DNA of 64,000 bases from Minisyncoccota bacterium (GCA_022842945.1 JALHOO010000002.1:25030-89029), one strand, 5' to 3'. Positions 11,036-64,000 are shown, counted from the stretch's first letter. Numbers and translations: made by a program. The notes: generated from the letters alone by a model not told the origin.

Positions 11036-11074
11036 AATGCTTCTAGTATAACGTCCTTAATAGACATATACGCA

Positions 11075-11102
11075 AAAAGCTCCGACGTGCGGAGCTTTTT
11101 GC
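11075..11102 (-). terminator. Intrinsic terminator after the major pilin gene (GCTCCGCACGTCGGAGC + U-tract)
   Basis: Hairpin AAAAAGCTCCG-ACGTG-CGGAGCTTTTTGCG seen. The U-run is on the minus-strand RNA. Confidence 0.65.
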
Positions 11103-11117
11103 GCTTGTGTGTGCGAA

Positions 11118-11564: not shown

Positions 11565-11668
11565 AGAGTCTATAAATGAATTAATGCGCATAATGGGTAA
11601 CTATCCGCTTCTCCACATTGTACGCCACCCTTCTCCCTGTCTCGGTGTCCATGGGGATAACGGGTGGT

Positions 11669-12877: not shown

Positions 12878-12883
12878 AGGGCG

Positions 12884-13951
12884 TTATAGATACCGCTCGA
12901 AGGTCTTTGGATCGTTCGCACGCTCATACGCGTGCTCGATAGTAACTTCGCCTCGGCGAACAAGCTCCGCGAGAGAGCGGTCCATATCAATCATGCCCTC
13001 CTGGGAACTCGTCTGAATAACCGTTGTTATCTCGTGTGTACGTCCTTCACGAATAAGGTTTGAGACCGCACTGTTGTTTATGAGAAGCTCATACGCAGGC
13101 AACTGGCCTCCTGAGATGCGCGGAATAAGACGCTGGCTGAAGATACCCGCAAGAGACCCTGCAAGCTGCACACGTACCTGGTCCTGCTGGTTTGGCGGGA
13201 ACATGTCGATAATACGATCAATAGTCTGCGCGGCATTGTTGGTGTGAAGTGTAGAAAGCACCAAGTGTCCGGTCTCCGCTGCCGTAACCGCGCTTGAGAT
13301 AGTCTCCTGGTTACGCATCTCCCCCACCATGATTACGTTCACGTCCTCACGGAATGCTGAGTTAAGTGCTGAATGGAAGTCAGGCGTATCAATGTGCACT
13401 TCACGCTGATGAATAAGAGACTTCTTCTGCTCGAAGATGTACTCAACCGGATCCTCGATCGTCACAATATGCTCCGCACGCGTCTCATTAATGCGATCAA
13501 TGATGGTCGCAAGTGTCGTGGACTTTCCCTGCCCCACCGGACCCACAACCAAGAAGAATCCCTGGGACCTCTGACTGAACACTTCGAGGATGGGTGGAAG
13601 GTTCAAGCTCTCAAAGGAACGGATCTGATGCGGAATGAGACGCATGGCGATAGTAACCGCTCCCTGCACCATGTATCCGTTGATACGAAAGCGTGCCTTG
13701 GAAGTATGTGCGTATGAAAAGTCTATAGACTGCTCAGCAGCAAAACGCTCGAATCTACTGGCTGGCGCAATGCTCTTAAGGTACCCAAGAGTGACCTCTG
13801 GAGTGAGTACCGGATGCTGAAGAAGCGGTACGAGTGAACCGGAGATGCGCACAATTGGATTATTCCCTGCTGAAAGATGCAGGTCAGAGCCGCCTTCAGA
13901 CACTACGGTATCAAGCAGTGCTTTAAGTGTTGCATCTATCTGTTCATTCAT
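12884..13951 (-). CDS. pilT: Twitching-motility/retraction ATPase
   Basis: 355 aa. Walker A GPVGQGKSTT. PilT-length secretion ATPase. Confidence 0.8.
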   Translation of the reverse strand: MNEQIDATLKALLDTVVSEGGSDLHLSAGNNPIVRISGSLVPLLQHPVLTPEVTLGYLKSIAPASRFERFAAEQSIDFSYAHTSKARFRINGYMVQGAVTIAMRLIPHQIRSFESLNLPPILEVFSQRSQGFFLVVGPVGQGKSTTLATIIDRINETRAEHIVTIEDPVEYIFEQKKSLIHQREVHIDTPDFHSALNSAFREDVNVIMVGEMRNQETISSAVTAAETGHLVLSTLHTNNAAQTIDRIIDMFPPNQQDQVRVQLAGSLAGIFSQRLIPRISGGQLPAYELLINNSAVSNLIREGRTHEITTVIQTSSQEGMIDMDRSLAELVRRGEVTIEHAYERANDPKTFERYL

Positions 13952-13953
13952 GC

Positions 13954-14337
13954 TTAAGCCTCAATTATCTTTATGGTCTCTGCAAATACTTCGGACGGGA
14001 TAGCGGAAGCCTTGATGATGTAGCCGTGAGCGCCCAGTGCCTTCGCCTGTGCAATATCTGACTCCTGTCCCTGGTTTGAGAGAACAATCTTTTTCATCGC
14101 TCCTCCAAGATTCTCTTTCTTAATCGCTTCGAGAATTTCAAACCCGGTCATTTCGGGCATAACAATGTCTACAAGAAGCGCGTCCGGTGCAGAGTGCTCA
14201 CGGAGTGCTACGAGGAGATCGACGCCACCTGCAAATGCCGTTACCTCGTGCCCTGCCGCCTTGAACTTAACGGCATACATGTCCAACAGGAATCGGTCGT
14301 CATCAACAAGGTAGAGGCGGTAGGGTGCAGTAGGCAT
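13954..14337 (-). CDS. Single-domain CheY-like response regulator embedded between pilB and pilT (PilH/PilG-like)
   Basis: REC domain with DDD...D...K residues. Start moved to the internal Met (MPTAPYRLYLVDDD). Confidence 0.7.
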   Translation of the reverse strand: MPTAPYRLYLVDDDRFLLDMYAVKFKAAGHEVTAFAGGVDLLVALREHSAPDALLVDIVMPEMTGFEILEAIKKENLGGAMKKIVLSNQGQESDIAQAKALGAHGYIIKASAIPSEVFAETIKIIEA

Positions 14338-14344
14338 ACGTGAT

Positions 14345-16099
14345 CTATTTAGGTGCAGTCTCCCCTTCTTCGTCGAGAATGGTCTGGCCACCCAGCGCAT
14401 TCACCTCTTCGAAAGGAATCTGTCCTGCTAACGCTTTAATGATAGCATCCTCGCGCATGGTAAACATGCCCTTGGCGCGAGCGGCCGCATACACCGATTC
14501 CTCTGTAGGAGTGGTGAGCACTACGTGTTCTAGTTCCTTATCCATACGTAGGAACTCAAAGACTGCGAGGCGTCCACGGGTTCCGTTCGGACAGTCAGGG
14601 GTAGCCTGGGCGCTGTAGAACGTATCAAATGCCGGGAGGTTTTGACGATACTCCTCAGGAAGGTCGTTGAACTCACGCGTGAGAAGACCCTTCATACTCT
14701 CTGAAAGAGGCATGGGCTTCCCCGCCCCCGGACAGAGCTTGCGGACCAGTCGCTGACTAATAGCCGCAATGAGGGTTGGTGCAATGAGGTAGGGGTCGAC
14801 ACCCATATCAACCAAGCGAGGAATAACACCCGCGGCGGTGTTGGTGTGGATGGTTGAGAACACGAGGTGCCCGGTAAGCGCAGCCTGGATAGCAAGCTGT
14901 GCGGTCTCTTTGTCGCGAATCTCTCCCACCATAATAATGTCCGGGTCCTGGCGAAGAATAGAGCGGAGGCCCGATGCGAAGGTGTAGCCAATCTCCGGAC
15001 GCACCTGTGATTGCGACACGCCAGCAATCTCATACTCAACCGGATCCTCAACCGACACTACGTTTGCAGATTCCCGATCAAGCTCGGTAAGCATCGAAAA
15101 GAGCGTGGTCGACTTTCCAGAACCTGTAGGTCCCGCAATGAGAATAATGCCGTACGGCTTCTTGATAATCTCTCGCACCTGCGCAAGGTCCGTAGCAGAC
15201 AGACCGATGGTCTCAAGGGTTGCGACTGACTTTGCGCTATCAAGAATACGCATCACCACCTTCTCCCCTCCTTGGGTTGGGAACGTCGATACACGGAAAT
15301 CAATACGGCGCCCCTCAACCGTTGCTGAGAAGCGTCCGTCCTGTGGTTTTCGTTTCTCATCAAGGCGCATCTGCGAAAGAATCTTGATACGCGCCACAAC
15401 CGCAGGGTGCACCTTTGCCGGAAGCTCAAGAGACGTATGGAGCTCTCCATCCATGCGGAAGCGCACGCGTGTTTTCTCAGGCGTTGGCTCTACATGAATA
15501 TCTGAAGCCCCGCCTTCTACCGCGTAGCGTAGTATGGTTGCCACAATCTTTGTAACCGGCGCATCCGCCTTGATGTTGGTCTCCTGCACACCTTCGGCTG
15601 GAGCCGCTTCCTTACCCTCATCAAGATCTACCGGCGCGCCCTCGATTTCAGAGAGTGCCTCACCCACTTCTCCGGAGAGATTCTCGTATTCCTTAAGTAC
15701 ACGATCAAAGTCTGTCTGCGAGATTATGAAAAGCTTGTACGGCATACTCACCCGGCTCGATATGAACTGGAGTGCGTCGAGTGCCTCAATGTTGTCCGGG
15801 TCAAGAATACCTACGGACAGCGCACCGTCTGTTGCCTCTATAGGTACGAAGCCGTAATGCCGCGCGGACTCTTCTGGAATAAAGGAGAGGGTGTGCGTGT
15901 CTGAGAGCTCGGACGGCAGCTTACGATACGGAATCTGGTACTTCTGCGACACCGCCTCGTACGCAGTATCAAGTGCAATCTTGCGCTTCTCGAGCGCCAT
16001 ATCAACCGTTACCCCCTTTGAACGTACCTCTTCCTCAACGCTTGCAGCGTCTTCAGGTGTGAGGATTCCTTTTTCTGTTAGAAGAGCAACGAGATTCAT
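14345..16099 (-). CDS. pilB: Type IV pilus extension ATPase (GspE/PilB family)
   Basis: 584 aa. N-terminal T2SSE_N domain. Walker A GPTGSGKSTT. Confidence 0.85.
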   Translation of the reverse strand: MNLVALLTEKGILTPEDAASVEEEVRSKGVTVDMALEKRKIALDTAYEAVSQKYQIPYRKLPSELSDTHTLSFIPEESARHYGFVPIEATDGALSVGILDPDNIEALDALQFISSRVSMPYKLFIISQTDFDRVLKEYENLSGEVGEALSEIEGAPVDLDEGKEAAPAEGVQETNIKADAPVTKIVATILRYAVEGGASDIHVEPTPEKTRVRFRMDGELHTSLELPAKVHPAVVARIKILSQMRLDEKRKPQDGRFSATVEGRRIDFRVSTFPTQGGEKVVMRILDSAKSVATLETIGLSATDLAQVREIIKKPYGIILIAGPTGSGKSTTLFSMLTELDRESANVVSVEDPVEYEIAGVSQSQVRPEIGYTFASGLRSILRQDPDIIMVGEIRDKETAQLAIQAALTGHLVFSTIHTNTAAGVIPRLVDMGVDPYLIAPTLIAAISQRLVRKLCPGAGKPMPLSESMKGLLTREFNDLPEEYRQNLPAFDTFYSAQATPDCPNGTRGRLAVFEFLRMDKELEHVVLTTPTEESVYAAARAKGMFTMREDAIIKALAGQIPFEEVNALGGQTILDEEGETAPK

Positions 16100-16222
16100 C
16101 TAATGGGAGCCGAAGTTCAAGACCTCGAGATTATAAAACGGTCGATAATATACTGCCCTGCGACCCTGACTTCCCTAAGTGTACTACGTGCACGAACACT
16201 ACACGCAGTGCATGCGGGGAAA

Positions 16223-16528
16223 TCACTCTGCAGCCACACCGGGAAGTGGCGAAAACGGATCCGTACGTCCTTCTACTTCCGGCTGGATAACGGTCTTGAT
16301 GTCTACCAATGCCTCAAAGCGAGGATCGCGGAGTACCGTTACATCGAATGAGATCGAACCAAGCTGTGCGGCAAGCGTGAGGAAGGTAGCTTGTGCCGCG
16401 CTTGAGGCACCCACACTAGTGGTAATAGTGTCTTCAGCATTCGGACGCATCCAAAGGAAGTACGCAATAACACCGAGCACCACAATAGCGGCCGCAATAG
16501 TTATGGAAGTGTTCTTTGAAAGTGCCAT
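16223..16528 (-). CDS. Small single-pass membrane protein in the pilus cluster (possible PilP-analog)
   Basis: 101 aa, one TM helix. Located between pilO and pilB. Confidence 0.35.
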   Translation of the reverse strand: MALSKNTSITIAAAIVVLGVIAYFLWMRPNAEDTITTSVGASSAAQATFLTLAAQLGSISFDVTVLRDPRFEALVDIKTVIQPEVEGRTDPFSPLPGVAAE

Positions 16529-16532
16529 AGAG

Positions 16533-17117
16533 TTATTTGAGCCAGTAAAGACGGAACGTAATGTCGTAGGTGTAAATACCGGTCTGAGAGTCAGTAACGG
16601 AAATCTCTACCACGTCGATATGACGAAGACTGTTCTCAACACCCAGAAGGAATGTCTGGAACGCCGCATAACTACCGGTTGCTGCTACAGAAAGGTCGAG
16701 AGACTCGGTGGGTTCTCCAGCACTCAGCGCAAGCGCACCACTACCCCCTCCTCCAAGTGGCGCCGTGCCCTGGGTGCTAGAGGCCTCAGTGTTGCTTTCA
16801 ATACTAAACTCGGACAGCTGTACTCCTGAGCGCGCCGCAAGCGAGTTCAGGTCAACAATGAGTCTAACGTTGTCTACGTTATCTGGAAGAAACGACTCGA
16901 GACGTATGATCTGTTCGTCCGTAATAGCAGCGCGATCACGTGTAAGCTGAATCTCTTTCTCCTTGAAGTCTGTGGCGGCCGCAAGCGCCGTATCAAGGTC
17001 TCGTATCTCTGTCGTGAGATCAACAATAGAACCGCTATACGTAGGCTGCACATACCCAATAAAGAGGCCGGCAGCGCCGATAATCATGAGGAGCGGGATG
17101 ATGCGAGTGAATATCAT
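16533..17117 (-). CDS. pilO: Type IV pilus biogenesis protein PilO-like
   Basis: N-terminal TM plus coiled coil and PilO-like periplasmic domain. 4-nt overlap with pilN. Confidence 0.6.
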   Translation of the reverse strand: MIFTRIIPLLMIIGAAGLFIGYVQPTYSGSIVDLTTEIRDLDTALAAATDFKEKEIQLTRDRAAITDEQIIRLESFLPDNVDNVRLIVDLNSLAARSGVQLSEFSIESNTEASSTQGTAPLGGGGSGALALSAGEPTESLDLSVAATGSYAAFQTFLLGVENSLRHIDVVEISVTDSQTGIYTYDITFRLYWLK

Positions 17118-17836
17118 GGTTGTGGAGTGCTAGTGGCACGCGTACTTGAGGCAGTGGTTGTGCCGGGTGTCGTTGCTGGCTGCAGATTTGGAGCCACGGG
17201 CTCGTTCACAACAGGAGGGGGTACTGTACCTGAAGACGGCTCAGAAATACCAGGGAACGCTTCTGCTGAGGTAATGAGTCTCGGGTCCAGAGTTGCCGTC
17301 ACCGAGAATCCAACGGTGCCATTTGTGTTTACTGAAATGTCAGAAAAGATTGCACTCTTGATGCGCTTCTCACTTGCTATAGCGGTGGTCTGCGCCGCAA
17401 GCGCATTAAAGCTACGGGCAACACCCTCCATAGTCACTTCTGCGGAACGGTCTTCGTTTACCGAAAGCGAAAGCGTATTGAAACGAACGGTCTGCAAAGT
17501 CTTTGCTTCAAGGACCGTAAAGAACTTTGTAAGCTCGATGTGATCGTTCAGCATTCGCTCCACCTCAACTAGGCGGTTCTTAAGTCGAATGAAACCTTCC
17601 ACCACATCAAGGTTAACTGATCGCTGTGCCTGAAGGAGTTCTGCAGACTTCGCATCGCGTGCACTCTTCAGGTAGAGTTCGTACCCAAAGACTCCAGCCG
17701 CAACAAGTGCACTAATACCCGCAACGGCAATAGCAATCAAAAGAAGCACGCTACGTCCGCTCTTTTGAGAACGTGCGTGCGTTGATACCGGTTGTTTTGG
17801 TACGAACGAGGTTGGAATGGTCGGAGGTAATGCCAC
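17114..17836 (-). CDS. pilN: Type IV pilus biogenesis protein PilN-like
   Basis: Single TM then coiled-coil region. Operon position between pilM and pilO. Confidence 0.6.
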   Translation of the reverse strand: MALPPTIPTSFVPKQPVSTHARSQKSGRSVLLLIAIAVAGISALVAAGVFGYELYLKSARDAKSAELLQAQRSVNLDVVEGFIRLKNRLVEVERMLNDHIELTKFFTVLEAKTLQTVRFNTLSLSVNEDRSAEVTMEGVARSFNALAAQTTAIASEKRIKSAIFSDISVNTNGTVGFSVTATLDPRLITSAEAFPGISEPSSGTVPPPVVNEPVAPNLQPATTPGTTTASSTRATSTPQP

Positions 17837-17904
17837 AGTGGTGTTAAGTATACGGGAGAATGTGCGCTATAGAGGCTTCTTATGCACAGAGACCATGAAG
17901 ATGC

Positions 17905-18993
17905 CTACTCCTCTTCTTCAAGCTTGCGCAGTGCAAGACCTACCGCAACCGCGAACTCTGGACCAATAGCCTGCAGTACCGGACGCATGAACTCAGGAGC
18001 CTGTGTCTTGCTGAAAGGATCGGCGACACGCACATCTACAGAGAAGAATCCCTTTGCGTACGCCTCGAGCTCTTTGGTTACGCCCCCTCCCCCCGTAAGA
18101 ACCAAGCAGGAGACTTTCGCATTCTTCGCCATTTCATACTGCGTAAGCGCACGCTTCGCCTCTTCAAAGATGCGCGAGAACACGAGCTCAATAGAACGAT
18201 GGTCGTAGGTCCCTGCTTCCTGCGTAAAGCCATGCGCTTTCTTAAGGGTCTCAGCATCTCCCACCGTAATACCTTGTGAGGTGGCGATGGTGCGTGTCAC
18301 GTCCTGCCCGCCACTTGGAATGTTGTGCGAGAACGCAACCACGCCGTGCTCAACCACATACACCTTCGTAGCACTTGCACCAATATCAAGGACAAGCACT
18401 GGCTTAACCGGCTCATCAACTACAGAACGAATGGTGCTGAATATCTCAATCTCATAGAAGGTTGCCGAAAGCTCGGACCCTCGTACCACACCCTCAAGCA
18501 AAGAGAGCTCGTCGTTATGCACGGCCACAAGCAGCACCTGCACCTTAGGAGGAGGTGCTGCTCCTTCAGGAATAGCTTCCGGAAGAATAAACCAGTCGAG
18601 CTGCACCTCCGTTACGGGTACGGGAATATACTTTCTCGCCTCGAGCTCAATTACCGTCTTTTGCTCCTCCGGACTATCTCTCCGAGGAAGCTCAACGAGT
18701 GTAAGTAGAGTACGAGAGAACGGGATAGAAATCCCCGCGTCTTTCGTAGTTACATTAGCTTCACGTAGGAGGTCGTTGAGTGTCTCTGCAATCTTTGCCG
18801 CAGGAAGATTGGTTGCCTGTCCCACCTCAACGCCCGCGTACGGACCCAGGGCGAGCTCGCCATAGGTCTCAAGCACCGCAGTGCCTCCCTGGCGACGCAG
18901 CTGCACCACTTTCAAAGACGAGGAGCCTATGTCCACGCCGATTACGCTCTTCGACTTCTTTGTGTCACCGAAAAGTTTTGTGAGGAACCCCAT
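17905..18993 (-). CDS. pilM: Type IV pilus assembly ATPase-like actin-fold protein
   Basis: VIGVDIGSSSLKVVQL actin-like N-terminus. 362 aa. Confidence 0.8.
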   Translation of the reverse strand: MGFLTKLFGDTKKSKSVIGVDIGSSSLKVVQLRRQGGTAVLETYGELALGPYAGVEVGQATNLPAAKIAETLNDLLREANVTTKDAGISIPFSRTLLTLVELPRRDSPEEQKTVIELEARKYIPVPVTEVQLDWFILPEAIPEGAAPPPKVQVLLVAVHNDELSLLEGVVRGSELSATFYEIEIFSTIRSVVDEPVKPVLVLDIGASATKVYVVEHGVVAFSHNIPSGGQDVTRTIATSQGITVGDAETLKKAHGFTQEAGTYDHRSIELVFSRIFEEAKRALTQYEMAKNAKVSCLVLTGGGGVTKELEAYAKGFFSVDVRVADPFSKTQAPEFMRPVLQAIGPEFAVAVGLALRKLEEEE

Positions 18994-22598: not shown

Positions 22599-24170
22599 CT
22601 AGCTCGCGGTTGTCGAACACGTCTTTAGAAGTGCTGCGCGCGTTGCCGGTCCCACAATGCCGTACGCCGTGGAACTCGGTGAGACAATCTTTTCCTGTAC
22701 TTGGAACCGCTTCACGGCTGCAAGCGTAGCGGGTCCAAAATACCCCGTTACCTTCCCTTCTGGAAACATCGTAGGATTCTTTGCAAGGAGCGTCTGCAGT
22801 CGCGTAACCTCTCCCTTGGTTGAGGCGTCGTCTGCACTAGGTATCAGCTCACTCGTGAACGCAGCGCAGACAGTACCGGGGGTTGGTGTCGGGGCTTGCA
22901 GTACTGGCGCCTGAAGTACTTCTGCAAGAACCGGAGTTGAGAGACCAAACGCAGTATTAAGGGCTTGCCGTGTTGAAGGCCCAAGGAGTCCCGTTTGCTC
23001 AATACCCTTCTGTGCCTGGAATGCCTTGAGTGCAAGTGTGGTGCACTCGTTTAGAATGCCCGATACCGGACACTCAGCCAAAGAGGCCTCGGTTCCTGGA
23101 TACAAGCCGAGACTTCGAAGAGATGCCTGGAGCGCGTAGATTGCGCGAGGGTTTGCAGCGGTTGTAGTCGCGAGCACGTCACTTCCAAACTGGAACGGAA
23201 GCGCACGTGAGGCGTACGGTGCGCGTTCGGTTGAGCCAAAGAAGTCCTTCACGCCGAGTGCGGTTTGATACGCAAAGTCCATAAAGACTTCGTTGCGTGC
23301 ACCGTCTCCCGTTATGCGCGGCTCATAGATATATCCGTACTCAATAAGGAGGCTCGGTGGCTTGGCGGTGTTGTACGCACCAATGGCGATGAGCTCTCGG
23401 GACTCGAGAATACCTGTTACCTCCTGTCCAAACGTAGAGGTTGCTGTGGTGGTATTGAGCCGGTCGAATATAGGCTCTGCAATAGCTCGGGAAGTCTTTC
23501 CGTTTCCGTACAAACGCTCAGGGATGTAAATAGAGGCTCCTGAGTGTATGCCACGAACGTTCTCTTCGTGTCCCGTCTCGTCATTCAAATGGAGATGGAG
23601 GACAAGATCCACATCGTTCTCGTTGGACCATTTGTTTATGCCATACAGACGAAGTGCCACATCGCTTCTGGCAGCGTTGTGTGCTGCATGTGCATACGTC
23701 TCTTCGAGTCGTCCACGTTTCTCGAGTTTCTTCATAGCCTCCTTCTGCTTCTCGACAAAGCGCTCAATCTTTTTTCCCTGCCTGTCAAAGTAGTACTCAA
23801 AATCATCGTTCCATCCCTGGGTTCCGCGCGCGACAAATACTTCAAAGTTTGGGTCAGTTCTAAGCTCCTGTGCCAGCTGCTCGGCAATAGCAACCACGAA
23901 CTCACGCTCGTAATACCCCATGAACTCGGTGCCTCCATAGTTGTGCTCATGCCCCGGCATGATGAGAATACGGACCTTCTCTCCACCCGCACTCGCTTCA
24001 GCATATGCCTCACTCAAATCATCAACACTCATCGCCTCTTCAAAGGAGACCGTACGTTTCTTTGAAGCTGCCTCAAGATGCGGGGCGCCACTTATGAACA
24101 CAACCGCAAGAATCAGGGTGAAAGAGAGGGAGGTTGGAAAGAATGTACGCATATGTATGTACCCTAGCAT
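22599..24170 (-). CDS. Secreted N-acetylmuramoyl-L-alanine amidase-like cell-wall hydrolase with two C-terminal PG_binding_1 domains
   Basis: Signal peptide. Amidase_3-like core. Two LxxxQxxxGL...G..T peptidoglycan-binding repeats. Confidence 0.6.
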   Translation of the reverse strand: MLGYIHMRTFFPTSLSFTLILAVVFISGAPHLEAASKKRTVSFEEAMSVDDLSEAYAEASAGGEKVRILIMPGHEHNYGGTEFMGYYEREFVVAIAEQLAQELRTDPNFEVFVARGTQGWNDDFEYYFDRQGKKIERFVEKQKEAMKKLEKRGRLEETYAHAAHNAARSDVALRLYGINKWSNENDVDLVLHLHLNDETGHEENVRGIHSGASIYIPERLYGNGKTSRAIAEPIFDRLNTTTATSTFGQEVTGILESRELIAIGAYNTAKPPSLLIEYGYIYEPRITGDGARNEVFMDFAYQTALGVKDFFGSTERAPYASRALPFQFGSDVLATTTAANPRAIYALQASLRSLGLYPGTEASLAECPVSGILNECTTLALKAFQAQKGIEQTGLLGPSTRQALNTAFGLSTPVLAEVLQAPVLQAPTPTPGTVCAAFTSELIPSADDASTKGEVTRLQTLLAKNPTMFPEGKVTGYFGPATLAAVKRFQVQEKIVSPSSTAYGIVGPATRAALLKTCSTTAS

Positions 24171-53947: not shown

Positions 53948-54282
53948 AGACAAAAGAAAATCGCGCTTCAACAGCGCGTCGGCCCACAAAGGGGCTTTCG
54001 GCTGGAGGTCCGGGGTCCGAAGACGCCGTACATAGCAACTCAGGGACTATACCTGATTCTATTCCGGGATGCAAATCCTGTGCTAAAGTGCCCTCACCAT
54101 AGCTTCGTATGGAAGGGAGATCTTTTATGAGTGTCCAGGAAACTCAACACCAAGCCGAAACAACGGAAAGCCCTGAGCCGCCCGGATTCAACGAAACCGG
54201 ACCGGCGAGCTACTACGCTCCGGAAGGATTCGGCGACCCTGCCGAGCATTCCTCCGGGTATGCAGACGGCCGCATCTAGGAA

Positions 54283-54350
54283 GCCGGGCCCGGCGCAAAT
54301 GCGTGCCGGGCCCTTTCGATACAGAAAAGCGCCCCGCAAGGCGGGACGCT
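54283..54350 (-). terminator. Two tandem hairpins (GGCCCGGC-GCAAATGCGT-GCCGGGCC and AGCGCCCCGC-AAG-GCGGGACGCT + U-tract) after the 91-aa ORF
   Basis: Seen in sequence. Minus-RNA UUUUCUGUAUCG follows the proximal hairpin. Confidence 0.55.
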
Positions 54351-54625
54351 CATTTCTTCCTCCGCTTCCGATCTGCGGGAGCATCATCAGGAGCGGTCGT
54401 GAATCTTCCTCCGACCTTTTCTCCGGCGATAACAATCCCCTTCTCGTAGCGATATCTCCTCGCCTTCTTGTTCCAGAGCTTGTCCTTGAGCGGAGCCAGC
54501 CTGGTGACTCCCGTTTCCGGAGGTCGTGCGTCATGCATAGCCTTCAGGACTACTCCGACTGCGGCATTGCGTCTGTAGACGCGGAGAGTGCTCTCAAGAG
54601 GCTTGGTCTTAATCCCGTCGACCAT
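54350..54625 (-). CDS. Small basic hypothetical protein (91 aa) between rpsJ and rplC
   Basis: Own terminators on both sides. KGIVIAGEKVGGRFT motif. Lys/Arg-rich tail. Confidence 0.4.
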   Translation of the reverse strand: MVDGIKTKPLESTLRVYRRNAAVGVVLKAMHDARPPETGVTRLAPLKDKLWNKKARRYRYEKGIVIAGEKVGGRFTTAPDDAPADRKRRKK

Positions 54626-54684
54626 GATTCGAACCTTTCAAACAACGAACAGAAGAAGAGCATACACCCGTATACACAAAAGCA

Positions 54685-54708
54685 AAACCGCCCTCTCGGG
54701 CGGTTTTG
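54685..54708 (-). terminator. Intrinsic terminator after rpsJ (AAAACCGCCC-TCTC-GGGCGGTTTT)
   Basis: 10-bp stem. UUUUGCUUUUGUGU on the minus RNA. Confidence 0.75.
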
Positions 54709-54723
54709 CTTCTCCCTTTCGGG

Positions 54724-55080
54724 TTAGACCATCTTCACATCAATCGTCACGCCTGAAGGCAGGGTGAGGTTCGTGAGAGCCTCGATAACCTTAGGGTTTG
54801 GACTGAGGATGTCGATCAAACGCTTGTGGATGCGCATTTCGAACTGCTCACGTGCGTCCTTGTGGACGAAGGTTGAGCGGTTCACGGTCCAGCGCTTGAT
54901 TTCGGTTGGAAGAGGCACAGGTCCTACGGTCTTCGCATCAAAGCGAGACGCGGTGTCCATGATCTGCTTCACCGAGAGGTCCAGGATCTTGTGCTCGTAG
55001 GCACGAACGCGGATCCGGAGCTTCGGCTCGCTTGGTGCCTCGGCAACCTTCTTGACGGTCTTCTTCGCGGTTGTAGCCAT
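54724..55080 (-). CDS. rpsJ: 30S ribosomal protein S10
   Basis: 118 aa. Confidence 0.9.
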   Translation of the reverse strand: MATTAKKTVKKVAEAPSEPKLRIRVRAYEHKILDLSVKQIMDTASRFDAKTVGPVPLPTEIKRWTVNRSTFVHKDAREQFEMRIHKRLIDILSPNPKVIEALTNLTLPSGVTIDVKMV

Positions 55081-55102
55081 ACGAGTAAGAAGTTAAAGCG
55101 GA

Positions 55103-56308
55103 TTAGGCGACGATCTTTGTGACCACACCAGCACCCACCGTCTTGCCACCCTCGCGAACCGAGAAGCGGAAGTTGTCCTCAAGCGCGATTGGCGCTGTGA
55201 GCTTTACCTTGAAGGTAACGGTGTCGCCTGGCATAACCATCTCCTTTCCTTCTGGAAGCGTAACCTCGCCCGTAACGTCCGTTGTACGAACGTAGAACTG
55301 TGGCTTGTAACCAGAGAAGAATGGGGTGTGGCGGCCTCCCTCGTCCTTGGAGAGGATGTACACCTCAGCCTCGAACTCAGTGTGTGGCTTTACGGAGCCG
55401 AGCTTCGCAAGCACCTGTCCGCGATGGACGTCCTCCTTCTTCGTACCGCGAAGAAGGATACCAGCGTTGTCGCCAGCCTGTCCCTCCTGGAGCTGCTTGT
55501 TGAACATCTCGATACCGGTGACGGTTGTCTTGACCGTGTCCTTAAGACCAACGATCTCGATTTCCTCGCCCACCTTGATAACACCGCGCTCGATGCGTCC
55601 GGTGATAACGGTACCGCGTCCTTCAATCGAGAAGATGTCCTCGATAGGCATGAGGAACGGCTTGTCGAGCTCGCGCTCAGGCTGTGGGAAGTACGTGTCC
55701 ATAGTGTCCACGAGCTCCTTAACCTTAAGTGCCCACTCGTCGTTCGCGTCAGTTGCGTTAAGCGCGCGAAGTCCAGAACCGCGAATGATCGGGGTAGCTG
55801 CACCGTCGTAGCCCTGCTTGGTAAGAAGCTCGCGCATCTCTTCCTCAACGAGGTCGAGCATGTCTACGTCCTCCACCATGTCCGTCTTGTTGAGGAACAC
55901 GATGAGACGTGGAACACCCACCTGCTTTGCAAGGAGAATGTGCTCACGAGTCTGTGGCATCGCACCGTCTGTTGCCGCAACCACGAGTACTGCGCCGTCC
56001 ATCTGGGCAGCTCCCGTAATCATGTTCTTGATGTAGTCGGCGTGGCCTGGAGCGTCGATGTGCGCGTAGTGGCGGTTCGGGCTCTCGTACTCAGAGTGGT
56101 GAAGGGCGATGGTAATACCACGAGCCTTCTCCTCAGGAGCGTTGTCGATGTTGTCGACGTTCTCCGCGCGGGCCTTGTAGCCTGCAGCGGTGTTGAGGTT
56201 GAGCACATTGAGAATACCGGCGGTGAGCGTGGTCTTTCCGTGGTCCACGTGACCGATGGTACCCACGTTCATGTGCGGCTTGCTTCGGTCGAATGCTTCT
56301 GCTGCCAT
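55103..56308 (-). CDS. tuf: Elongation factor Tu
   Basis: [15 protein letters not shown], NKxD. 401 aa. Confidence 0.97.
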
Positions 56309-56944
56309 ACGATTGGTAGGTTATTGGTAGCTAAAAATAAATTTTTGCCGCCGCGCCTGCCTGTTTGAAGACAGGCGACCAAGGCGAAGGTCGGACTAAC
56401 CCGCGCAACGCCTTTCAGCCATCCCGACCTCCGTAAGGAGAGGAACATTGAAAAGAGCGCCGTATTTCGCGTTACTTCTTAAACTACCGGAGCTGGGGCC
56501 CTCGGTCAAGCGCAAAAGATAGAGGCGACCCTAAGGCCGCCTCCTTTTCCTCCCCCAGAGCCGCTTCAAGGGAGAGCCCACCAGGTCCCTGTTCTCATAG
56601 AGGAGAGCACTAACGACCAGTATGGCCACCACGGTGCGTAGGGGCCATGTGGCGAGTGTCGAACCGAGTGACACGGATTTGCCCGTATTCTGAGCGTTCT
56701 TGGTCATATTCCCCTCCCAGGGTTACCCGTTCATGATAGTCAAAACCGTTCGGATACAAAGACATGAGCCCTGCATCCACGGCGCCGTACCAGGATTCTT
56801 CAGTAGCTACCGCAGGCAGCATATCCAAAGACAGCATAGTGCTCCCAAGAAGGAGATTCTTTCTGGATGTTCTCATTACAATGCCCTTCGTGTGCGTCTA
56901 CTTGCACGATACGTGACTAACAAAAAACAGCAAACCAGTAGGAG

Positions 56945-57601
56945 CTACTGGAACTTAAAGGACGAAACGATGCGATCGTATACCGCTTCCTGGCCCATGG
57001 CGACGGCAATAGTGTAGACCTGCATATCATGCAGGAATACGCTTGCGCGGGTCTCATTCTCCGCACCTGCCGGATAGTTAGCGACGCGAATCTGTGTCGC
57101 CTTCTCCCCTCCTATCGTGCGGGAAGATTCAGTGATGCGACCTGCTCGATACTCAGTACGAAGCGCATCGAGTGTCTTATCAAGGCTCACATTCACATTC
57201 TCCTTCTCGAAGACTACGGTTGCCAAACAGTCCCCCGTTGAATCCTTAAGCTTCATGCAGATGGTTGTCTGTGGGTCTACAGACGTTGCTGAGGCAATCC
57301 AGTTGTCTGGATACGAGAAGCTAAAGCCGAACTCTGAGTTCTCATAAGTCTGATATGTCTGCGACGCAGGTACTTCCTCTCCAGGAGCGGCCGGGGCTCC
57401 AGGCTCAACTGGCTGGGGACGAATAACCGCGTCAGACGCGCTCTGAGACGCATCACGAAGCGCCGGTACTGAGTCGAGGTACCCATGGTCTGGTGTGCGA
57501 CTCCACCAGTACAAATACGCATATGCGCCCAGGGCAACTACCACGAGCACAGCGAGCATTATCTTCGTTCTTTTGGTGATCATATATACGAACCGTAGCA
57601 C
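56945..57601 (-). CDS. Secreted/membrane-anchored hypothetical protein between fusA and tuf
   Basis: N-terminal TM/signal. Pro/Ala-rich linker. ~120-aa C-terminal beta-rich domain. Confidence 0.45.
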   Translation of the reverse strand: MLRFVYMITKRTKIMLAVLVVVALGAYAYLYWWSRTPDHGYLDSVPALRDASQSASDAVIRPQPVEPGAPAAPGEEVPASQTYQTYENSEFGFSFSYPDNWIASATSVDPQTTICMKLKDSTGDCLATVVFEKENVNVSLDKTLDALRTEYRAGRITESSRTIGGEKATQIRVANYPAGAENETRASVFLHDMQVYTIAVAMGQEAVYDRIVSSFKFQ

Positions 57602-57649
57602 AAGAGCCGCCCCAGACGGGACGGCTCTGTGTACAGCACAGCGAATGAA

Positions 57650-59797
<2,148 letters not shown>

Positions 59798-59871
59798 TTT
59801 GTAAGAGATATAAAGTAAAAAGCCGCCTGGGCGTTACCTACAAGATACGTTTTAGAGACCCAAAAGGCAAG

Positions 59872-59900
59872 AAAAGGGGTCGCGAGCATGCGACCCCTTT
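59872..59900 (-). terminator. Intrinsic terminator after the KGG gene and before the fusA promoter region (GGGGTCGC-GAGCAT-GCGACCCC + UUUUCUUGCC)
   Basis: Seen in sequence. Confidence 0.7.
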
Positions 59901-59917
59901 CACATAGTTCCCGAGAC

Positions 59918-60178
59918 CTACTTCATCGGATGGATGCCGAAGTCGTCCTGGGGCCGAACTGGCTCCGCAGCCGGCTTCTTCCTCCTGGACCCGTGGCTGT
60001 TTTCGCCGCCCTTCCTGCCGGCCTTAGCCGCAAGGGCTCGATCCTGGCTGAACGACCGCTTGTCGCCTGGAACCGATGCGCCGCCCTTGCGAGCGAGCTC
60101 GCGCTGGCGCTCAGGGTCCATCGACGCGAACCCGCGCCGGCTTGTTCCAGGAATCTTCTCTTCAGGCGCGTTGGCCAT
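59918..60178 (-). CDS. KGG-repeat stress-induced protein (YciG-like)
   Basis: ARKGGASVPG and AGRKGGENSHG repeats. 86 aa. Confidence 0.6.
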   Translation of the reverse strand: MANAPEEKIPGTSRRGFASMDPERQRELARKGGASVPGDKRSFSQDRALAAKAGRKGGENSHGSRRKKPAAEPVRPQDDFGIHPMK

Positions 60179-60272
60179 GACCTTCTCCTCCTCTATCCAG
60201 CTTGAGTGCTGGTCTGTGGCCGAGTATACGCCTCAAAGATTAGAGGTAAAGAATAGGGTGCGTCTCTTATGT

Positions 60273-60905
60273 CTACACTTTCTCAAAGTGCTGATAATCC
60301 TTGTAGTTCTCCCTATCACCCAACCATGTCCACCCTCGCTCCTTGAAGAGGGTGACGTTATCGCTATCCGCAAAGAGCGTACCGGGTACTGAAGAATCAT
60401 GTACAGCATGTGGCGGATAAGTATTCCCATTCCGTGCGTGATACGGGTTCTGCAGTGGATTTATATCTATTGCTCTGCCTAACGAATGGTTAGATAGGAC
60501 ATCAGAGTCAACAATGCACCGGTAGTTAAAGGCGGAGGTGTTGTTGTGAGCCATAGAAGCTTCGTCATCCCAGTTATACGCTGCCACGGGAACCATCTTA
60601 TGTATCGGGAACTTCCGTATATAGAGCTCCTCGAACAAAAGACCTACTTCTTTAGCAAGATTGGTATGGATAACGAGCTGTCCCATGCACTTCTCTCCGT
60701 CAAAAGAAACATAGGGCACATCAATAAGCGCGAGCATACCGCGTATCTCAGACGGGATACTGAGTCCGCTAAGCGCTTCATCAAGGGAGGAGAATACCGT
60801 TTCCATATAGATGCTCAATAGATCGAGATAACTATACAGACAAGAAACCAATTTCCTATAAAAAGTTTGGACCCGGTCGCTCATGGCGATCGGGTCCAAA
60901 GTCAT
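60273..60905 (-). CDS. Peptidase M15 family (LAS metallopeptidase; VanX/CwlK-like D-Ala-D-Ala or L-Ala-D-Glu peptidase), no signal peptide
   Basis: Motifs SNHSLGRAIDI and DYQHFE. Confidence 0.65.
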   Translation of the reverse strand: MTLDPIAMSDRVQTFYRKLVSCLYSYLDLLSIYMETVFSSLDEALSGLSIPSEIRGMLALIDVPYVSFDGEKCMGQLVIHTNLAKEVGLLFEELYIRKFPIHKMVPVAAYNWDDEASMAHNNTSAFNYRCIVDSDVLSNHSLGRAIDINPLQNPYHARNGNTYPPHAVHDSSVPGTLFADSDNVTLFKERGWTWLGDRENYKDYQHFEKV

Positions 60906-61762
60906 GTAGGGCGATAGTCGTGCAATCGTCGTACGATGGTTATCTGGCCGTTTCCGTTTCTCTGCTGGTCGAAGATAACCTGCGCCAACGGCTGAACGAT
61001 AGCCCTGCCGTAAGGTTCAGCGACGGTAACGTTGAAGCAGTTCTTACTGTCCACCATAACCACCACGTGGCGTCCTTTGAGTTCCGTCCAGAACAGCAGG
61101 TCGCCTCGGCGAAGGTCCGAGTAGTCAACGGCAACCGTTACCGGTTTCCCCAACATCTTCGACTGCGGCATGGAATCGCGCGGACACGGGATACCTGCGG
61201 CGATACAGGCAGATTGAACAGCTGAAGAACAGTCGAACAGACTGCTTCTCCATCCCCAGCCGTACTCGACGCCCTGTTCTGCATCTCCAAGCTTTAGAAG
61301 TTCAGATACGAAGTCAGGAGCCTTGTATCCGATCGGCACGAGCCGGCGCGCAAACACCCACCCCAAACCATGTACTTCGCACATGGGTCCTTCAGGGGTT
61401 TTAACCGTCCGAACTACCGTTACAAGAGAGTTGAGGTAGAGCGTACCGGTGATGCGCTTCTTGAAGTCCGATTGATTGTAGATCCCCGCGGTACGTTCAC
61501 TGACTCGATGTGTCGCGGCTTCTGACAGGCCTTGTATAACATCGCTCGTCTTCATGTACCCGCTGTACTCATCGAGATCCGTAACGACCTGTAGCCAATC
61601 TTGACTGGTCTTCACGATGGCAAGGGACTCTCCGAAGAGCGCCTGCGTCTCAAGCGCCGAATCGATTGAAGGGTCGCGGTAGATGCCAGTGAAGCTGACA
61701 CCGACCCGACCTCTTATCTGTGTAGGTGTCTTGAACATGGCGTGTTCCTTCTTTGTGACCAC
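60902..61762 (-). CDS. NlpC/P60 cysteine peptidase with N-terminal SH3b-like domain (YkfC-like gamma-D-Glu-L-diamino-acid endopeptidase), cytoplasmic
   Basis: YGWGWRSSLFDCSSAVQ catalytic Cys and GDLLFW...GRHVVVMVD His region. No signal peptide. 4-nt overlap with the M15 gene. Confidence 0.7.
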   Translation of the reverse strand: MVTKKEHAMFKTPTQIRGRVGVSFTGIYRDPSIDSALETQALFGESLAIVKTSQDWLQVVTDLDEYSGYMKTSDVIQGLSEAATHRVSERTAGIYNQSDFKKRITGTLYLNSLVTVVRTVKTPEGPMCEVHGLGWVFARRLVPIGYKAPDFVSELLKLGDAEQGVEYGWGWRSSLFDCSSAVQSACIAAGIPCPRDSMPQSKMLGKPVTVAVDYSDLRRGDLLFWTELKGRHVVVMVDSKNCFNVTVAEPYGRAIVQPLAQVIFDQQRNGNGQITIVRRLHDYRPT

Positions 61763-61816
61763 AATACGACATTACGTCGTTCCGCTATTGAGCCTACACC
61801 TCTACCTAAAAGAAGA

Positions 61817-61839
61817 AAAGCCCGCATCTGCGGGCTTTC
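61817..61839 (-). terminator. Intrinsic terminator after rpsG (AAAGCCCGC-ATCT-GCGGGCTTT + UUUUCUUCUUUU)
   Basis: Seen in sequence. Confidence 0.75.
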
Positions 61840-61855
61840 TCTCTACAAAACGTGC

Positions 61856-62320
61856 TTACCAAGCGAAGTGTGCGAAGGCCTTGTTCGCGTCTGCCATGCG
61901 GTGCATGTCGTCCTTCTTCTTGATAGCCGAACCTTCGTTCTTTGCGGCCATGAGGATCTCGGATGCGAGACGCTCTGCCATTGGCTTGCCCTTCTGAGCG
62001 CGCGCAGCATTGATGAGCCAGCGGTACGCGAGTGCGATGCGGCGCTGCTGCGGAACCTCGCGAGGAACCTGGTAGTTAGCACCTCCCACACGGCGAGAGC
62101 GGACCTCCATGAGTGGAGCCACGTTGCGGATAGCAGTCTCGAAGGTCTCGAGCGGGTCGAGTTCCTGTGCCTTGATCAAATCAAGTGCGCCGTATACGAG
62201 CTTGCGGGCGGTGTCCTTCTTTCCGTCCCACATAACAGTGTTAATGAAACGAGAGATAGCCTCCGAGTTGTATACGAGGTCAGGGCGGCGAGGGTACTTG
62301 TTCTTTAGGGGATGTCGCAT
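61856..62320 (-). CDS. rpsG: 30S ribosomal protein S7
   Basis: 154 aa. Confidence 0.9.
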   Translation of the reverse strand: MRHPLKNKYPRRPDLVYNSEAISRFINTVMWDGKKDTARKLVYGALDLIKAQELDPLETFETAIRNVAPLMEVRSRRVGGANYQVPREVPQQRRIALAYRWLINAARAQKGKPMAERLASEILMAAKNEGSAIKKKDDMHRMADANKAFAHFAW

Positions 62321-62337
62321 GGTATCTGTACGTAAAA

Positions 62338-62748
62338 CTACGCCTTAGGCTTCTTAGCACCGTACTTCGAGCGTCCACGGCGGCGCTTATCAAGGCCAGC
62401 GGTGTCGAGGCGTCCACGAACGATGGTGTACTGCACACCGATGTCCTTCACGCGTCCACCACGGAGCATAACCACGGAGTGCTCCTGGAGGTTGTGTCCC
62501 TCTCCTGGGATGTAGGCGGTTACCTCCATCTGGTTGGTGAGCTTCACACGAGCGATCTTACGAATAGCCGAGTTCGGCTTGCGGGGAGTCTTAGTTGTTA
62601 CTTTCACACACACGCCACGCTTGAACGGCGCCGGGTAGAACGTAGGGCGGTTCTTAAGCGTGTTGAACCCACGTCCAAGAGCCACGACCTTGGTCTTGCG
62701 ACTGGTGGTCTTGCGGGCCTTCTTTGTGAGCTGGTTGATAGTCGACAT
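62338..62748 (-). CDS. rpsL: 30S ribosomal protein S12
   Basis: PNSAIRK motif region. 136 aa. Confidence 0.9.
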
Positions 62749-62762
62749 GTGTGAAGTAAAAA

Positions 62763-62783
62763 CTCCCCGGGGGAGTCAAAAGC
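62763..62783 (-). promoter_or_regulatory. Terminator-like hairpin ACTCCCC-G-GGGGAGT + UUUUU located 15 nt upstream of the rpsL start codon (leader attenuator candidate)
   Basis: Palindrome and U-run seen on the minus-strand RNA. No upstream minus-strand gene in the window for it to terminate. Confidence 0.35.
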
Positions 62784-62887
62784 ACTATATAAGAGAGCCC
62801 TTATAAATGCAAACCAGCAGGCAGACTTTATCGTTCTCCTTCCTTTTCTAGAGGTTTTTCCTATCCTTTGGTGCGTATGGTACGAGC

Positions 62888-64000
62888 ATGCCAAAAACCA
62901 TAGCCTTTCTTTTGTCTTTTACGCTCGCAGGCCTGCTTCCAGTCCCCCTACAGGCCGATTTCGTCCCTGAAGCGCCTATATACGCCACATTTGAGAATCA
63001 GCAGAACCTGCTCCTATATATAGGTACAGATGCAGGACCGCTCGCCACCTCAAGCATTGCCAGCAGGACCCCATTACATCTTTCCTACACGCTCGAATAC
63101 GGACCTAATCTGTTCACGCATCCAGATTACACAGAGACAATGAAAGAAGCGTATTTTCTCGCCATGCTCGAGGACTACGAAACCTACCTTGAGATCTGGA
63201 GCGGCGAACCTTTTACGTCTAGCGCGTCTGTTCTACAGACTATTCCTCTCCCCTCCACTCCCTCAGGTTCTACTACCCTAGACCCACTTAGTCCCGGAAC
63301 ATACTTCCTTGTGCTGTACCAGACAAATAACCTAAGGAATAAGACGCTGTACTGCGAACGAAATGACATATCTCCTGAGGGATGCGCCGAGGAGGATCGT
63401 TTCCCTGAATATCCTCTTTCTGAGACACGGGCATACTTTGCACGCTCCCTAGACTCTGAGGAGCCGTTCTCAAACGCGTTCCCCAGCACCTACGCAGGCA
63501 CCCGACTTACCGTACCGGCGCCCCAAGGGGCTTCTAATGTTCTTTTTCTACCAGGCATCAAGGGGAGCCGACTATACGACAGCGAGGGAAAGAAAGTATG
63601 GGAGCCCTTTGGCAATCACGATATCGAGTCGCTCATGCTTTCGCCGCTTGGAAAGAGTGTTTCTGACGGCATACATACAACTCCTAATGGCATTATCGAC
63701 ACCGTTGCGCTATTCACGGACATCTACGGGTCCTTTAGTCGAGTAATGGACGAATTGGTTACGGACGACATTATCTCCGCCTGGCGCGCGCTTCCCTATG
63801 ACTGGCGCCTTTCTCTTCCGGATATCGTACAGGGAGGCACCTATGTAGACGAACGTCTTTCCTATATAGGTGCGTCTACTCTGCCGGCAATACGCACAAA
63901 TCTCGAGGAGCTCGCTCGCTCCTCAAAAAGCGGAAAGGTCACTATCGTCGCACACAGCAATGGCGGACTCGTTGCGAAGGAACTCATGCGCACACTCGGA
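62888..64000 (+). CDS. Secreted alpha/beta-hydrolase, lipase/esterase (PGAP1/LCAT-like lipase class 2) with N-terminal domain; ORF continues past the window end
   Basis: Manual translation with no stop through 64000. Signal peptide MPKTIAFLLSFTLAGLLPVPLQA. Motifs LFLPGIKGSRLY and nucleophile elbow VAHSNGG. Confidence 0.55.
   Translation, partial: MPKTIAFLLSFTLAGLLPVPLQADFVPEAPIYATFENQQNLLLYIGTDAGPLATSSIASRTPLHLSYTLEYGPNLFTHPDYTETMKEAYFLAMLEDYETYLEIWSGEPFTSSASVLQTIPLPSTPSGSTTLDPLSPGTYFLVLYQTNNLRNKTLYCERNDISPEGCAEEDRFPEYPLSETRAYFARSLDSEEPFSNAFPSTYAGTRLTVPAPQGASNVLFLPGIKGSRLYDSEGKKVWEPFGNHDIESLMLSPLGKSVSDGIHTTPNGIIDTVALFTDIYGSFSRVMDELVTDDIISAWRALPYDWRLSLPDIVQGGTYVDERLSYIGASTLPAIRTNLEELARSSKSGKVTIVAHSNGGLVAKELMRTLG

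Follow-up and report, generated by a model that had tools for sequence, protein, structure and literature searches.

Conserved leaderless NlpC/P60 and M15 peptidases between rpsG and fusA in Paceibacterota: a plausible cytoplasmic route for murein-peptide disassembly

The cytoplasmic use of free murein peptides has been described in systems built on YkfC. In Bacillus subtilis and Chlamydia trachomatis this enzyme carries no signal peptide and works in the cytoplasm, where free tri- and tetrapeptides are its substrates but sacculi and peptides bound to N-acetylmuramic acid (MurNAc) are not (PMC2954226, PMC9928106). The YkfC/DPP-VI subfamily is marked by a tyrosine of the first SH3b domain (SH3b1) and an aspartate of the catalytic domain, Tyr118 and Asp256 in the Bacillus cereus enzyme (BcYkfC), and it requires a free L-Ala N-terminus (PMC2954226). 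Here we analysed a stretch of 64,000 nucleotides from a Minisyncoccota bacterium (GCA_022842945.1 JALHOO010000002.1:25030-89029, the window), in which the genes of an NlpC/P60 cysteine peptidase and an M15 zinc peptidase lie between rpsG and fusA. The two leaderless peptidases make up a pair that is conserved within, and specific to, this clade, and from the sequences it is plausible that the pair forms a cytoplasmic disassembly route for murein peptides, a variant of the known YkfC-type recycling. Patescibacteria build peptidoglycan and yet lack most of the biosynthetic pathways; if this reading is true, the pair would be a concrete salvage route.

By comparison with B. subtilis YkfA-D, BcYkfC (3H41) and DPP VI of L. 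sphaericus, the window NlpC/P60 protein has the same two SH3b domains before the NlpC/P60 domain, the same Cys-His core, the S1 residues and the Tyr/Asp pair. Like B. subtilis YkfC it has no signal peptide, and it is likewise paired with a putative enzyme for L-Ala-D-Glu. The differences are the low sequence identity (about 20% in the Foldseek alignment), an Asn as third catalytic residue and the location between rpsG and fusA. Moreover, the Bacillus partner YkfB is an epimerase of the enolase superfamily whereas the window partner is an M15 zinc peptidase, and the window pair has neither a YkfA (LD-carboxypeptidase) gene nor a peptide ABC transporter gene next to it. The C. trachomatis enzyme is alike in being a leaderless YkfC-type protein of a reduced genome. 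It cleaves the free tri- and tetrapeptide in the cytoplasm, spares precursors and sacculi, and is proposed to recover meso-diaminopimelic acid (mDAP) (PMC9928106). That system has experimental support and a known Opp importer, and the parts of its report consulted mention neither an M15 partner nor the fate of the dipeptide (PMC9928106). The MpaA - YcjG - PepD route of Escherichia coli follows the same logic, with a gamma-D-Glu–mDAP split and then the disposal of L-Ala-D-Glu, but it uses other families (an M14 amidase, an epimerase and an M20 dipeptidase), whereas the second step in the window would be direct hydrolysis of the L,D-bond. The M15 protein shares with Ply500, LysB4, B. subtilis CwlK and Serratia ChiX the zinc triad H-x6-D...H, the motif SxHxxGxAxD and an Asp as the catalytic acid three residues before the last His.

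The genes of the locus and its flanks, whose identities had been assigned from the sequence in the original prediction, were borne out by Pfam searches:

62338-62748, minus strand: rpsL, the 5' neighbour of rpsG
61856-62320, minus strand: rpsG (ribosomal protein S7), upstream flank; Pfam Ribosomal_S7, 2.2e-56
60902-61738, minus strand: SH3b1-SH3b2-NlpC/P60 cysteine peptidase, YkfC/DPP-VI-like, 278 amino acids, ATG start; Pfam
60273-60806 (longest reading frame to 60905), minus strand: M15/LAS zinc peptidase, 177 amino acids; Peptidase_M15_4, 4.4e-16
59918-60178, minus strand: small hydrophilic KGG-repeat protein, 86 amino acids; Pfam KGG, 4.6e-14, two repeats
57650-59797, minus strand: fusA (EF-G), downstream flank; five EF-G Pfam domains

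Conservation of the rpsG-fusA insertion

The interval between rpsG and fusA covers positions 59798-61855 and all its genes are on the minus strand; the sequence AAGGA precedes the ATG start of the NlpC/P60 gene. The gene order rpsL - rpsG - (optional small open reading frame, ORF) - NlpC/P60 - M15 - (optional KGG) - fusA was found in seven lineages, namely the window and the loci designated L006-8, L009-10, L011, L012, L013 and L096-97, which come from NCBI, JGI, ENA and Logan. The EF-G proteins of these syntenic lineages are 80-95% identical to that of the window (87% where only partial sequence was available), and the nearest named genomes are metagenome-assembled genomes of Candidatus Paceibacterota / Patescibacteria. 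The identical arrangement occurs in at least five independent assemblies.

A misassembly, which had been named as the outcome to fear if relatives lacked the insertion, was ruled out by these independent assemblies and by the synteny in relatives. It is hardly credible that the arrangement is an artefact or a prophage remnant. The region of the M15 gene (60200-61000) does have a markedly lower content of guanine plus cytosine (GC) than its surroundings, 0.47-0.48 against about 0.55, but the same order was assembled independently, syntenic copies exist in all seven lineages, phage genes are absent nearby and both genes are under selection. The ratio of nonsynonymous to synonymous substitutions (dN/dS) was 0.10-0.14 for the NlpC/P60 and M15 genes alike, calculated within the group of L009, L011 and L013 because synonymous divergence between the window and the L009 group was saturated for both genes. 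Both peptidase genes are under purifying selection, which excludes pseudogenes. Rfam and tRNA scans of 54000-64000 gave no match.

The proteins of the locus differ in their degree of conservation. In L009 the identity to the window is 95% for EF-G, 69% for M15 and 37% for NlpC/P60, and in L006 it is 81%, 59% and 49%, respectively. Judging from these alignments, some lineages have seen either a replacement of the NlpC/P60 gene or its very fast divergence, and a neighbour-joining tree did not discriminate between the two for the L009-type copy. It was also observed that L009, the closer relative by EF-G, has the more divergent NlpC/P60 protein of the two, which suggests a discordant history or a rapid change of the S2 site.

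Catalytic sites and location of the two peptidases

In the NlpC/P60 protein Pfam detected an SH3_16 domain (residues 27-74, 1.8e-12) and an NLPC_P60 domain (residues 164-245, 2.2e-9), while NCBIfam returned far-sub-threshold matches only. The best sequence match in the PDB was B. cereus YkfC (3h41) over residues 28-227, which include the SH3b and catalytic parts. The AlphaFold model of the protein had a mean predicted local distance difference test score (pLDDT) of 93.8, and Foldseek aligned the full-length model with DPP-VI (3npf/4r0k) at template modelling (TM) scores of 0.74-0.76 and with YkfC (3h41) at 0.70; further gamma-D-Glu-L-diamino acid endopeptidases were also matched. Taken together, Pfam and Foldseek place SH3b1 and SH3b2, in this order, ahead of the NlpC/P60 domain, and SH3b1 packs against the active site.

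The residues of the active site were located by homology to BcYkfC. Tyr118, which lies in strand beta-D of SH3b1 and contacts the L-Ala amine, corresponds to Y58 of the window protein (61567-61565), and Asp256 corresponds to D188 (61177-61175) in the segment R187-D188-S189, where Arg255 and Ser257 map to R187 and S189. The remaining positions of the S1/S2 and catalytic sites are Tyr226 (Y159), Trp228 (W161), Asp237-Cys238-Ser239 (D169-C170-S171, with C170 at 61231-61229) and His291 (H224). The Cys-peptidase motif that had been read from the sequence, D169-C170-S171 followed by H224, is therefore present, and the YkfC-like assignment made with it is upheld by the fold, with TM scores between 0.70 and 0.76, and by the presence of both subfamily-defining residues. 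The third residue of the triad is N236 in the window protein, whereas all six aligned syntenic relatives have His there. As papain itself uses a Cys-His-Asn triad, Asn236 is probably tolerated.

D188 was invariant in 34 homologues, and among the syntenic loci it is replaced, by Asn, in L012 only. The position of Y58 was more variable, with Tyr in the window, L006 and the aligned entries P0002-P0006, Lys in L009, L011, L013 and L097, and Arg in L012; NlpC/P60 genes of the variant loci are at L009:4089-4943, L011:4061-4915, L012:4082-4921 and L097:3109-3927. Taking this variation into account, the requirement for a free L-Ala may not hold across the clade and specificity may differ among lineages. 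For the window protein itself the family evidence is strong, and from sequence and model it is predicted to be a YkfC/DPP-VI-type enzyme that cleaves the bond between gamma-D-Glu and the diamino acid in free peptides beginning with L-Ala.

The M15 protein was modelled with a pLDDT of 97.1 and has no close solved relative. It has the LAS (hedgehog/DD-peptidase) fold and the marks of LAS/MEROPS family M15, with zinc ligands within SxHxxGxAxD and an acid before the last His. The two motifs that had been claimed for it were recovered as S105-x-H107-x-x-G-x-A-x-D114 and D170-x-x-H173, and the whole catalytic set (R96, S105, H107, D114, D170 and H173) was invariant in 41 homologues and the 7 syntenic loci. 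A lack of catalytic residues in alignments, which could have undone the assignment of either enzyme, was thus not seen: the Cys-His core of NlpC/P60 is retained and the M15 set is complete.

The bond attacked by the M15 protein was considered from its catalytic acid. This residue is Asp in the L-Ala–D-Glu peptidases Ply500 (Asp130) and ChiX (Asp120), and Glu in LdcB (Glu204), VanXY and VanX (Glu181) (PMC5778951, PMC4087270). In the window family the position three residues before the last zinc His is an invariant Asp, and the Glu of VanX, LdcB and VanXY was not found there. A single-sequence search of the PDB gave one marginal match, and significance was reached only with the family profile, which against the whole PDB detected only Ply500 (1.1e-5) and LysB4 (4.9e-4), and these over the last 27-36 profile positions only; the shared motif is KDYQHFE in M15 and KDYPHFE in Ply500/LysB4. 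Both matched proteins are L-Ala–D-Glu endopeptidases related to CwlK, and many M15 homologues carry the IMG label 'LD-endopeptidase CwlK'. The fold score against Ply500-type enzymes was no better than against VanY-type enzymes, the BFVD fold search gave weak matches only (TM ≤0.56), and NCBIfam holds no specific model for the M15 protein or for the KGG protein. On this comparison of residues and profiles, L-Ala–D-Glu is the favoured bond. The protein belongs to a large uncharacterised family of more than 1000 clusters from many phyla, most of them without a signal peptide, so that the present reading, if true, would give this widespread family its first function.

A phage-lysin origin was considered and rejected, as in the phage collection, IMG/VR and PHROGs the M15 protein is rare, and the NlpC/P60 protein is absent from phage records. 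Full-length M15 relatives are encoded by two uncultured phages, each of about 635 kb and with an unannotated record (LR756504.1:320129-320644, 39% identity; LR745206.1:373479-373949, 28%).

Neither peptidase was expected to have a signal peptide, and the hydrophobicity scan agrees with this. Over the first 50 amino acids, 12-residue Kyte-Doolittle means peaked at 1.15 for NlpC/P60 and 1.65 for M15, against 2.9-3.2 for three positive controls from the window (the amidase, a pilin and the PsbP-like protein), and neither ORF could be extended to a hydrophobic N-terminus. Signal-like N-termini do occur in about 12 of the 120 best M15 homologues, which are longer (194-230 amino acids), and in one Ignavibacteria copy. 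For most of the closest M15 homologues, then, the leaderless state is genuine.

Hairpins, transcription and accessory genes

Three strong hairpins and one weak promoter-like site were located in the interval:

61816-61839, minus strand: terminator-like hairpin with T-run directly after rpsG; terminator scan, -20.1 kcal/mol, z -5.3
60860-60900, minus strand: hairpin (60900-60866) and TTTTT (60864-60860) in the NlpC/P60-M15 spacer; -23.3 kcal/mol, z -5.6
60223-60250, minus strand: promoter-like site TTTACC-16-TATACT upstream of the KGG gene; consensus scan only, weak
59872-59901, minus strand: terminator-like hairpin with T-run after the KGG gene, before fusA; terminator scan, -21.6 kcal/mol, z -4.9

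The intrinsic terminator proposed at the end of rpsG was found as a hairpin with T-run, and it recurs in L006, L009, L011, L012 and L013 (6/6 loci examined); the second one proposed, between the KGG gene and fusA, was likewise recovered. The spacer hairpin overlaps the NlpC/P60 stop codon, and a GC-rich hairpin occupies the same position in every relative checked (L006, L009, L011, L012, L013 and L099), with a stem closely similar to that of the window in L012.

The spacer also bears on the start of the M15 gene. A 4-nt overlap of the two peptidase genes had been noted, but it is not supported as a sign of coupling: the ATGA overlap arises only for the longest M15 ORF (210 amino acids, start 60905). 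The more than 1000 M15 homologues are typically 170-185 amino acids long and align from residue 34 on, covering 81-84% of that ORF; a spacer of 57-100 nt lies between the two genes at six related loci; and the hairpin falls inside the dubious 33-codon extension. Considering these three observations, the start is likely the ATG at 60806 (177 amino acids), which gives a spacer of 95 nt, and the overlap is probably an artefact of ORF extension.

The str operon (rpsL-rpsG-fusA-tuf) as a single transcription unit would have no internal terminators. In the window its gene order is kept, yet 2.06 kb and three strong hairpins split rpsG from fusA. The claim that the pair is expressed with the translation machinery is not supported, given that rpsG, the NlpC/P60 gene and the KGG gene each have a strong hairpin behind them, and the peptidase genes are probably transcribed alone or by read-through and not as a part of the str operon. 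The KGG gene was found in two of the seven lineages, the window and L011 (a 50%-identical copy in the same place). Its product scored 52.8 bits against a cutoff of 20.4 for PF10685, with two repeats. As an optional and unrelated neighbour, the gene does not belong to the pair.

Because the str cluster of this clade is commonly interrupted by assorted accessory genes, location says little on function. For the rpsG-fusA gap, a site where insertions are tolerated is a better reading than co-regulation with the translation genes. A normally rigid cluster is here split by terminators and accessory genes, and this calls for caution when function is inferred from location. Carried further, the same observation would make the adjacency of the two peptidases functionless, the gap being an insertion hotspot and the enzymes independent. 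Depending on the lineage, the cargo of this gap includes a KGG gene, small membrane ORFs or a PsbP-like ORF, and between fusA and tuf there is a PsbP-like ORF, a HicA toxin gene next to a small ORF, or other ORFs. Besides, hairpins part all the genes, the M15 gene stands alone in most other taxa and the NlpC/P60 gene stands alone in L099. We nevertheless regard this explanation as very unlikely: the order NlpC/P60 then M15 and the orientation are kept in seven lineages although NlpC/P60 identity drops to 37%, and both families act on the same stem peptide.

Several of these accessory genes were observed between rpsG and NlpC/P60. A conserved 80-amino-acid protein with two transmembrane segments is encoded at L009:3557-3879 and L013:~4345-4589, in L009 behind a near-consensus promoter-like site (TTGACA-18-TG-TATGAT), and L012:3617-3951 encodes an 86-amino-acid transmembrane protein unrelated to it. 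These small membrane ORFs matched no phage family, PHROG or Pfam holin; a holin-like role is possible. L096/L097 have a PsbP_2-like ORF in this place (L097:2421-3029), different from the N-terminally anchored PsbP_2-like protein (weak Pfam match) encoded between fusA and tuf in the window (56945-57601, minus strand), to which it shows marginal similarity. The fusA-tuf gap contains a HicA toxin gene preceded by a 90-amino-acid ORF without family match in L009 (7835-8334), and a 101-amino-acid ORF in L012 (7911-8216).

A proposed pathway for stem peptides and its alternatives

Putting the above together, we propose with a probability of about 0.55 that in this Paceibacterota (Patescibacteria) bacterium the pair works in the cytoplasm as a disassembly line for free stem peptides of peptidoglycan. 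Stem peptides would be released by a MurNAc-L-Ala amidase and then enter the cell. In the first step, for which the family evidence is strong, the YkfC/DPP-VI-type enzyme would bind a stem peptide with a free N-terminal L-Ala and cut the gamma-D-Glu–diamino-acid bond, leaving L-Ala-D-Glu and either Lys/mDAP or, from a tetrapeptide, X-D-Ala. In the second and less certain step the M15 enzyme might hydrolyse the L,D-dipeptide, most likely L-Ala–D-Glu and alternatively X–D-Ala, which would set free individual amino acids, among them D-Glu and the diamino acid, for re-use. The M15 protein would stand in place of the Bacillus YkfB epimerase, and proteobacterial relatives may use a neighbouring M17 peptidase, whose role is a guess. 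If correct, direct L,D-hydrolysis would be a third way in which the L-Ala-D-Glu left by YkfC-type enzymes is dealt with, besides epimerase plus dipeptidase, the M17 partner being possibly a further one.

The salvage role suggested in the original prediction stands as the best reading, for the NlpC/P60 protein is of YkfC type, the LAS set is complete, signal peptides are lacking and the insertion is conserved; there is direct experimental precedent in the leaderless C. trachomatis YkfC (PMC9928106). What found no support was the co-expression with the operon. The functional link between the two enzymes is argued from their adjacency and common orientation in the seven lineages and from the low dN/dS of both genes.

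That NlpC/P60 enzymes of this lineage act together with a second peptidase is supported by a sister group. The NlpC/P60 proteins of the sister group, from high-GC (58-75%), alphaproteobacteria-like sequences, are 29-38% identical to the window protein and likewise leaderless and fixed next to a second peptidase, which in this case is a cytosolic M17 aminopeptidase outside the ribosomal cluster. The Peptidase_M17 gene lies immediately upstream on the same strand, and the adjacency was found in 63/79 metagenome loci and in 3/3 contigs looked up (L093-L095, L100-L178; for example L093:3644-5861). The M17 + NlpC/P60 pair is strong and apparently undescribed, and it may be the missing step of stem-peptide degradation in bacteria without LdcA and Mpl.

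A number of observations weigh against the proposed pathway. The third catalytic residue of the window NlpC/P60 protein is Asn and not His, the diagnostic Tyr is Lys or Arg in 5/7 syntenic lineages, and L012 has in addition Asn at Asp188. The hairpins between the genes speak against tight co-translation. All the characterised Asp-type relatives of the M15 protein are endopeptidases on MurNAc-linked peptides, and none is known as a dipeptidase. The two genes also occur apart: at L099 (104-1870) an NlpC/P60 gene (51% identical product) precedes a hairpin and then fusA, and the locus lacks M15; and 79 more distant M15 homologues from GTDB loci (Ignavibacteria, Bacteroidota, Syntrophia, Saccharibacteria, Amycolatopsis and others) have no NlpC/P60, rpsG or true fusA within 6 kb, one of them having an EF-G-family match of only 27% identity. 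Finally, the importers and Mpl/LdcA-like genes that the salvage idea called for were sought, but the scan of 33 window ORFs (529-33935 and 56945-62320) revealed no Opp/Dpp, Mpl or LdcA gene.

The genomic context of M15 elsewhere was also inspected. The recurrence of neighbours in the 79 GTDB loci reflects Ignavibacteria synteny and gave no functional signal, and eleven other Patescibacteria M15 loci shared no common context. In a further Patescibacteria locus (L098:3549-4797) an M15 homologue of 58% identity stands alone between rplI, at a distance of 6 nt on its upstream side, and rpmA, once more among ribosomal-protein genes but without an NlpC/P60 gene.

Within the same salvage process, the M15 enzyme could act upstream or elsewhere, as an LdcB-like L,D-carboxypeptidase, a VanY/VanXY-like D,D-carboxypeptidase or a D-Ala-D-Ala dipeptidase, trimming penta- and tetrapeptides or splitting X-D-Ala or D-Ala-D-Ala. 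This seems somewhat unlikely, as the invariant catalytic acid is Asp and not the Glu of LdcB, VanXY and VanX, and the family profile detects solely Ply500 and LysB4 in the PDB. Trimming would also be unnecessary: the single YkfC-type enzyme tried on both takes tri- and tetrapeptides (PMC9928106).

A different explanation is that both proteins are leaderless wall hydrolases exported by a non-classical, holin-like route, as Serratia ChiW/ChiX, either to open the producer's own wall for pili or secretion or to attack the wall of a host. The small membrane ORFs just upstream of the pair in three relatives (L009, L013 and L012) recall the holin-dependent export of the leaderless M15 endopeptidase ChiX; the unusually fast divergence of NlpC/P60 with its variable S2 residue resembles that of a host-interaction gene; and the window contains a large type IV pilus cluster. 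Yet a membrane ORF of this kind is absent from the window, L006 and L011, and no ORF with several transmembrane segments was found in 59798-61855, as a ChiWX-like holin-endolysin cassette would require; where the small ORFs do occur, they match no phage family or holin model. The NlpC/P60 protein has the residues of the occluded S2 site of YkfC-type enzymes, and those characterised do not digest sacculi. No cell-wall-binding module is present in either protein. The M15 protein has no PHROG match and its relatives are on 7/50,697 phage records and 11 IMG/VR contigs, and the NlpC/P60 protein has no match in phage records. On this balance we hold export of the pair to be unlikely.

Returning to the cytoplasmic disassembly line, its widest form can be put forward only tentatively. 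The M15 family as a whole might consist of leaderless LAS enzymes that hydrolyse murein L,D-dipeptides (L-Ala-D-Glu) inside the cell and that, with YkfC-type enzymes, would make a two-enzyme route from stem peptide to amino acids, harvesting D-Glu and the diamino acid from the host wall for an auxotrophic episymbiont; the residue of the S2 site (Tyr/Lys/Arg) would then track substrate chemistry.

As to the origin of the peptides, the secreted amidase with two peptidoglycan-binding domains to which the original prediction drew attention is indeed encoded at 22599-24170 (minus strand). Pfam detected Amidase_3 and two PG_binding_1 domains, and the N-terminal signal peptide agrees with a secreted N-acetylmuramoyl-L-alanine amidase. 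It is a candidate source of free stem peptides beginning with L-Ala, at a distance from the pair.

Other features were observed in the window and its relatives. The type IV pilus cluster occupies 7986-18993 (minus strand) and comprises several prepilin-like genes, a prepilin peptidase, a PilC-like T2SSF gene, two T2SSE ATPases, a response-regulator gene and PilM; in L006 and L007, T2SSE/T2SSF genes lie directly upstream of rpsL. At 62761-62813 (minus strand), just upstream of rpsL, a promoter-like site (TTTGCA-18-TATAGT) is followed by a short hairpin, GACTCCCCCGGGGAGTT-TTT, without Rfam match. The promoter-like site recurs in L006, L009 and L012, each with a similar C/G-rich hairpin (identical in L009), which may be a leader or regulatory element.

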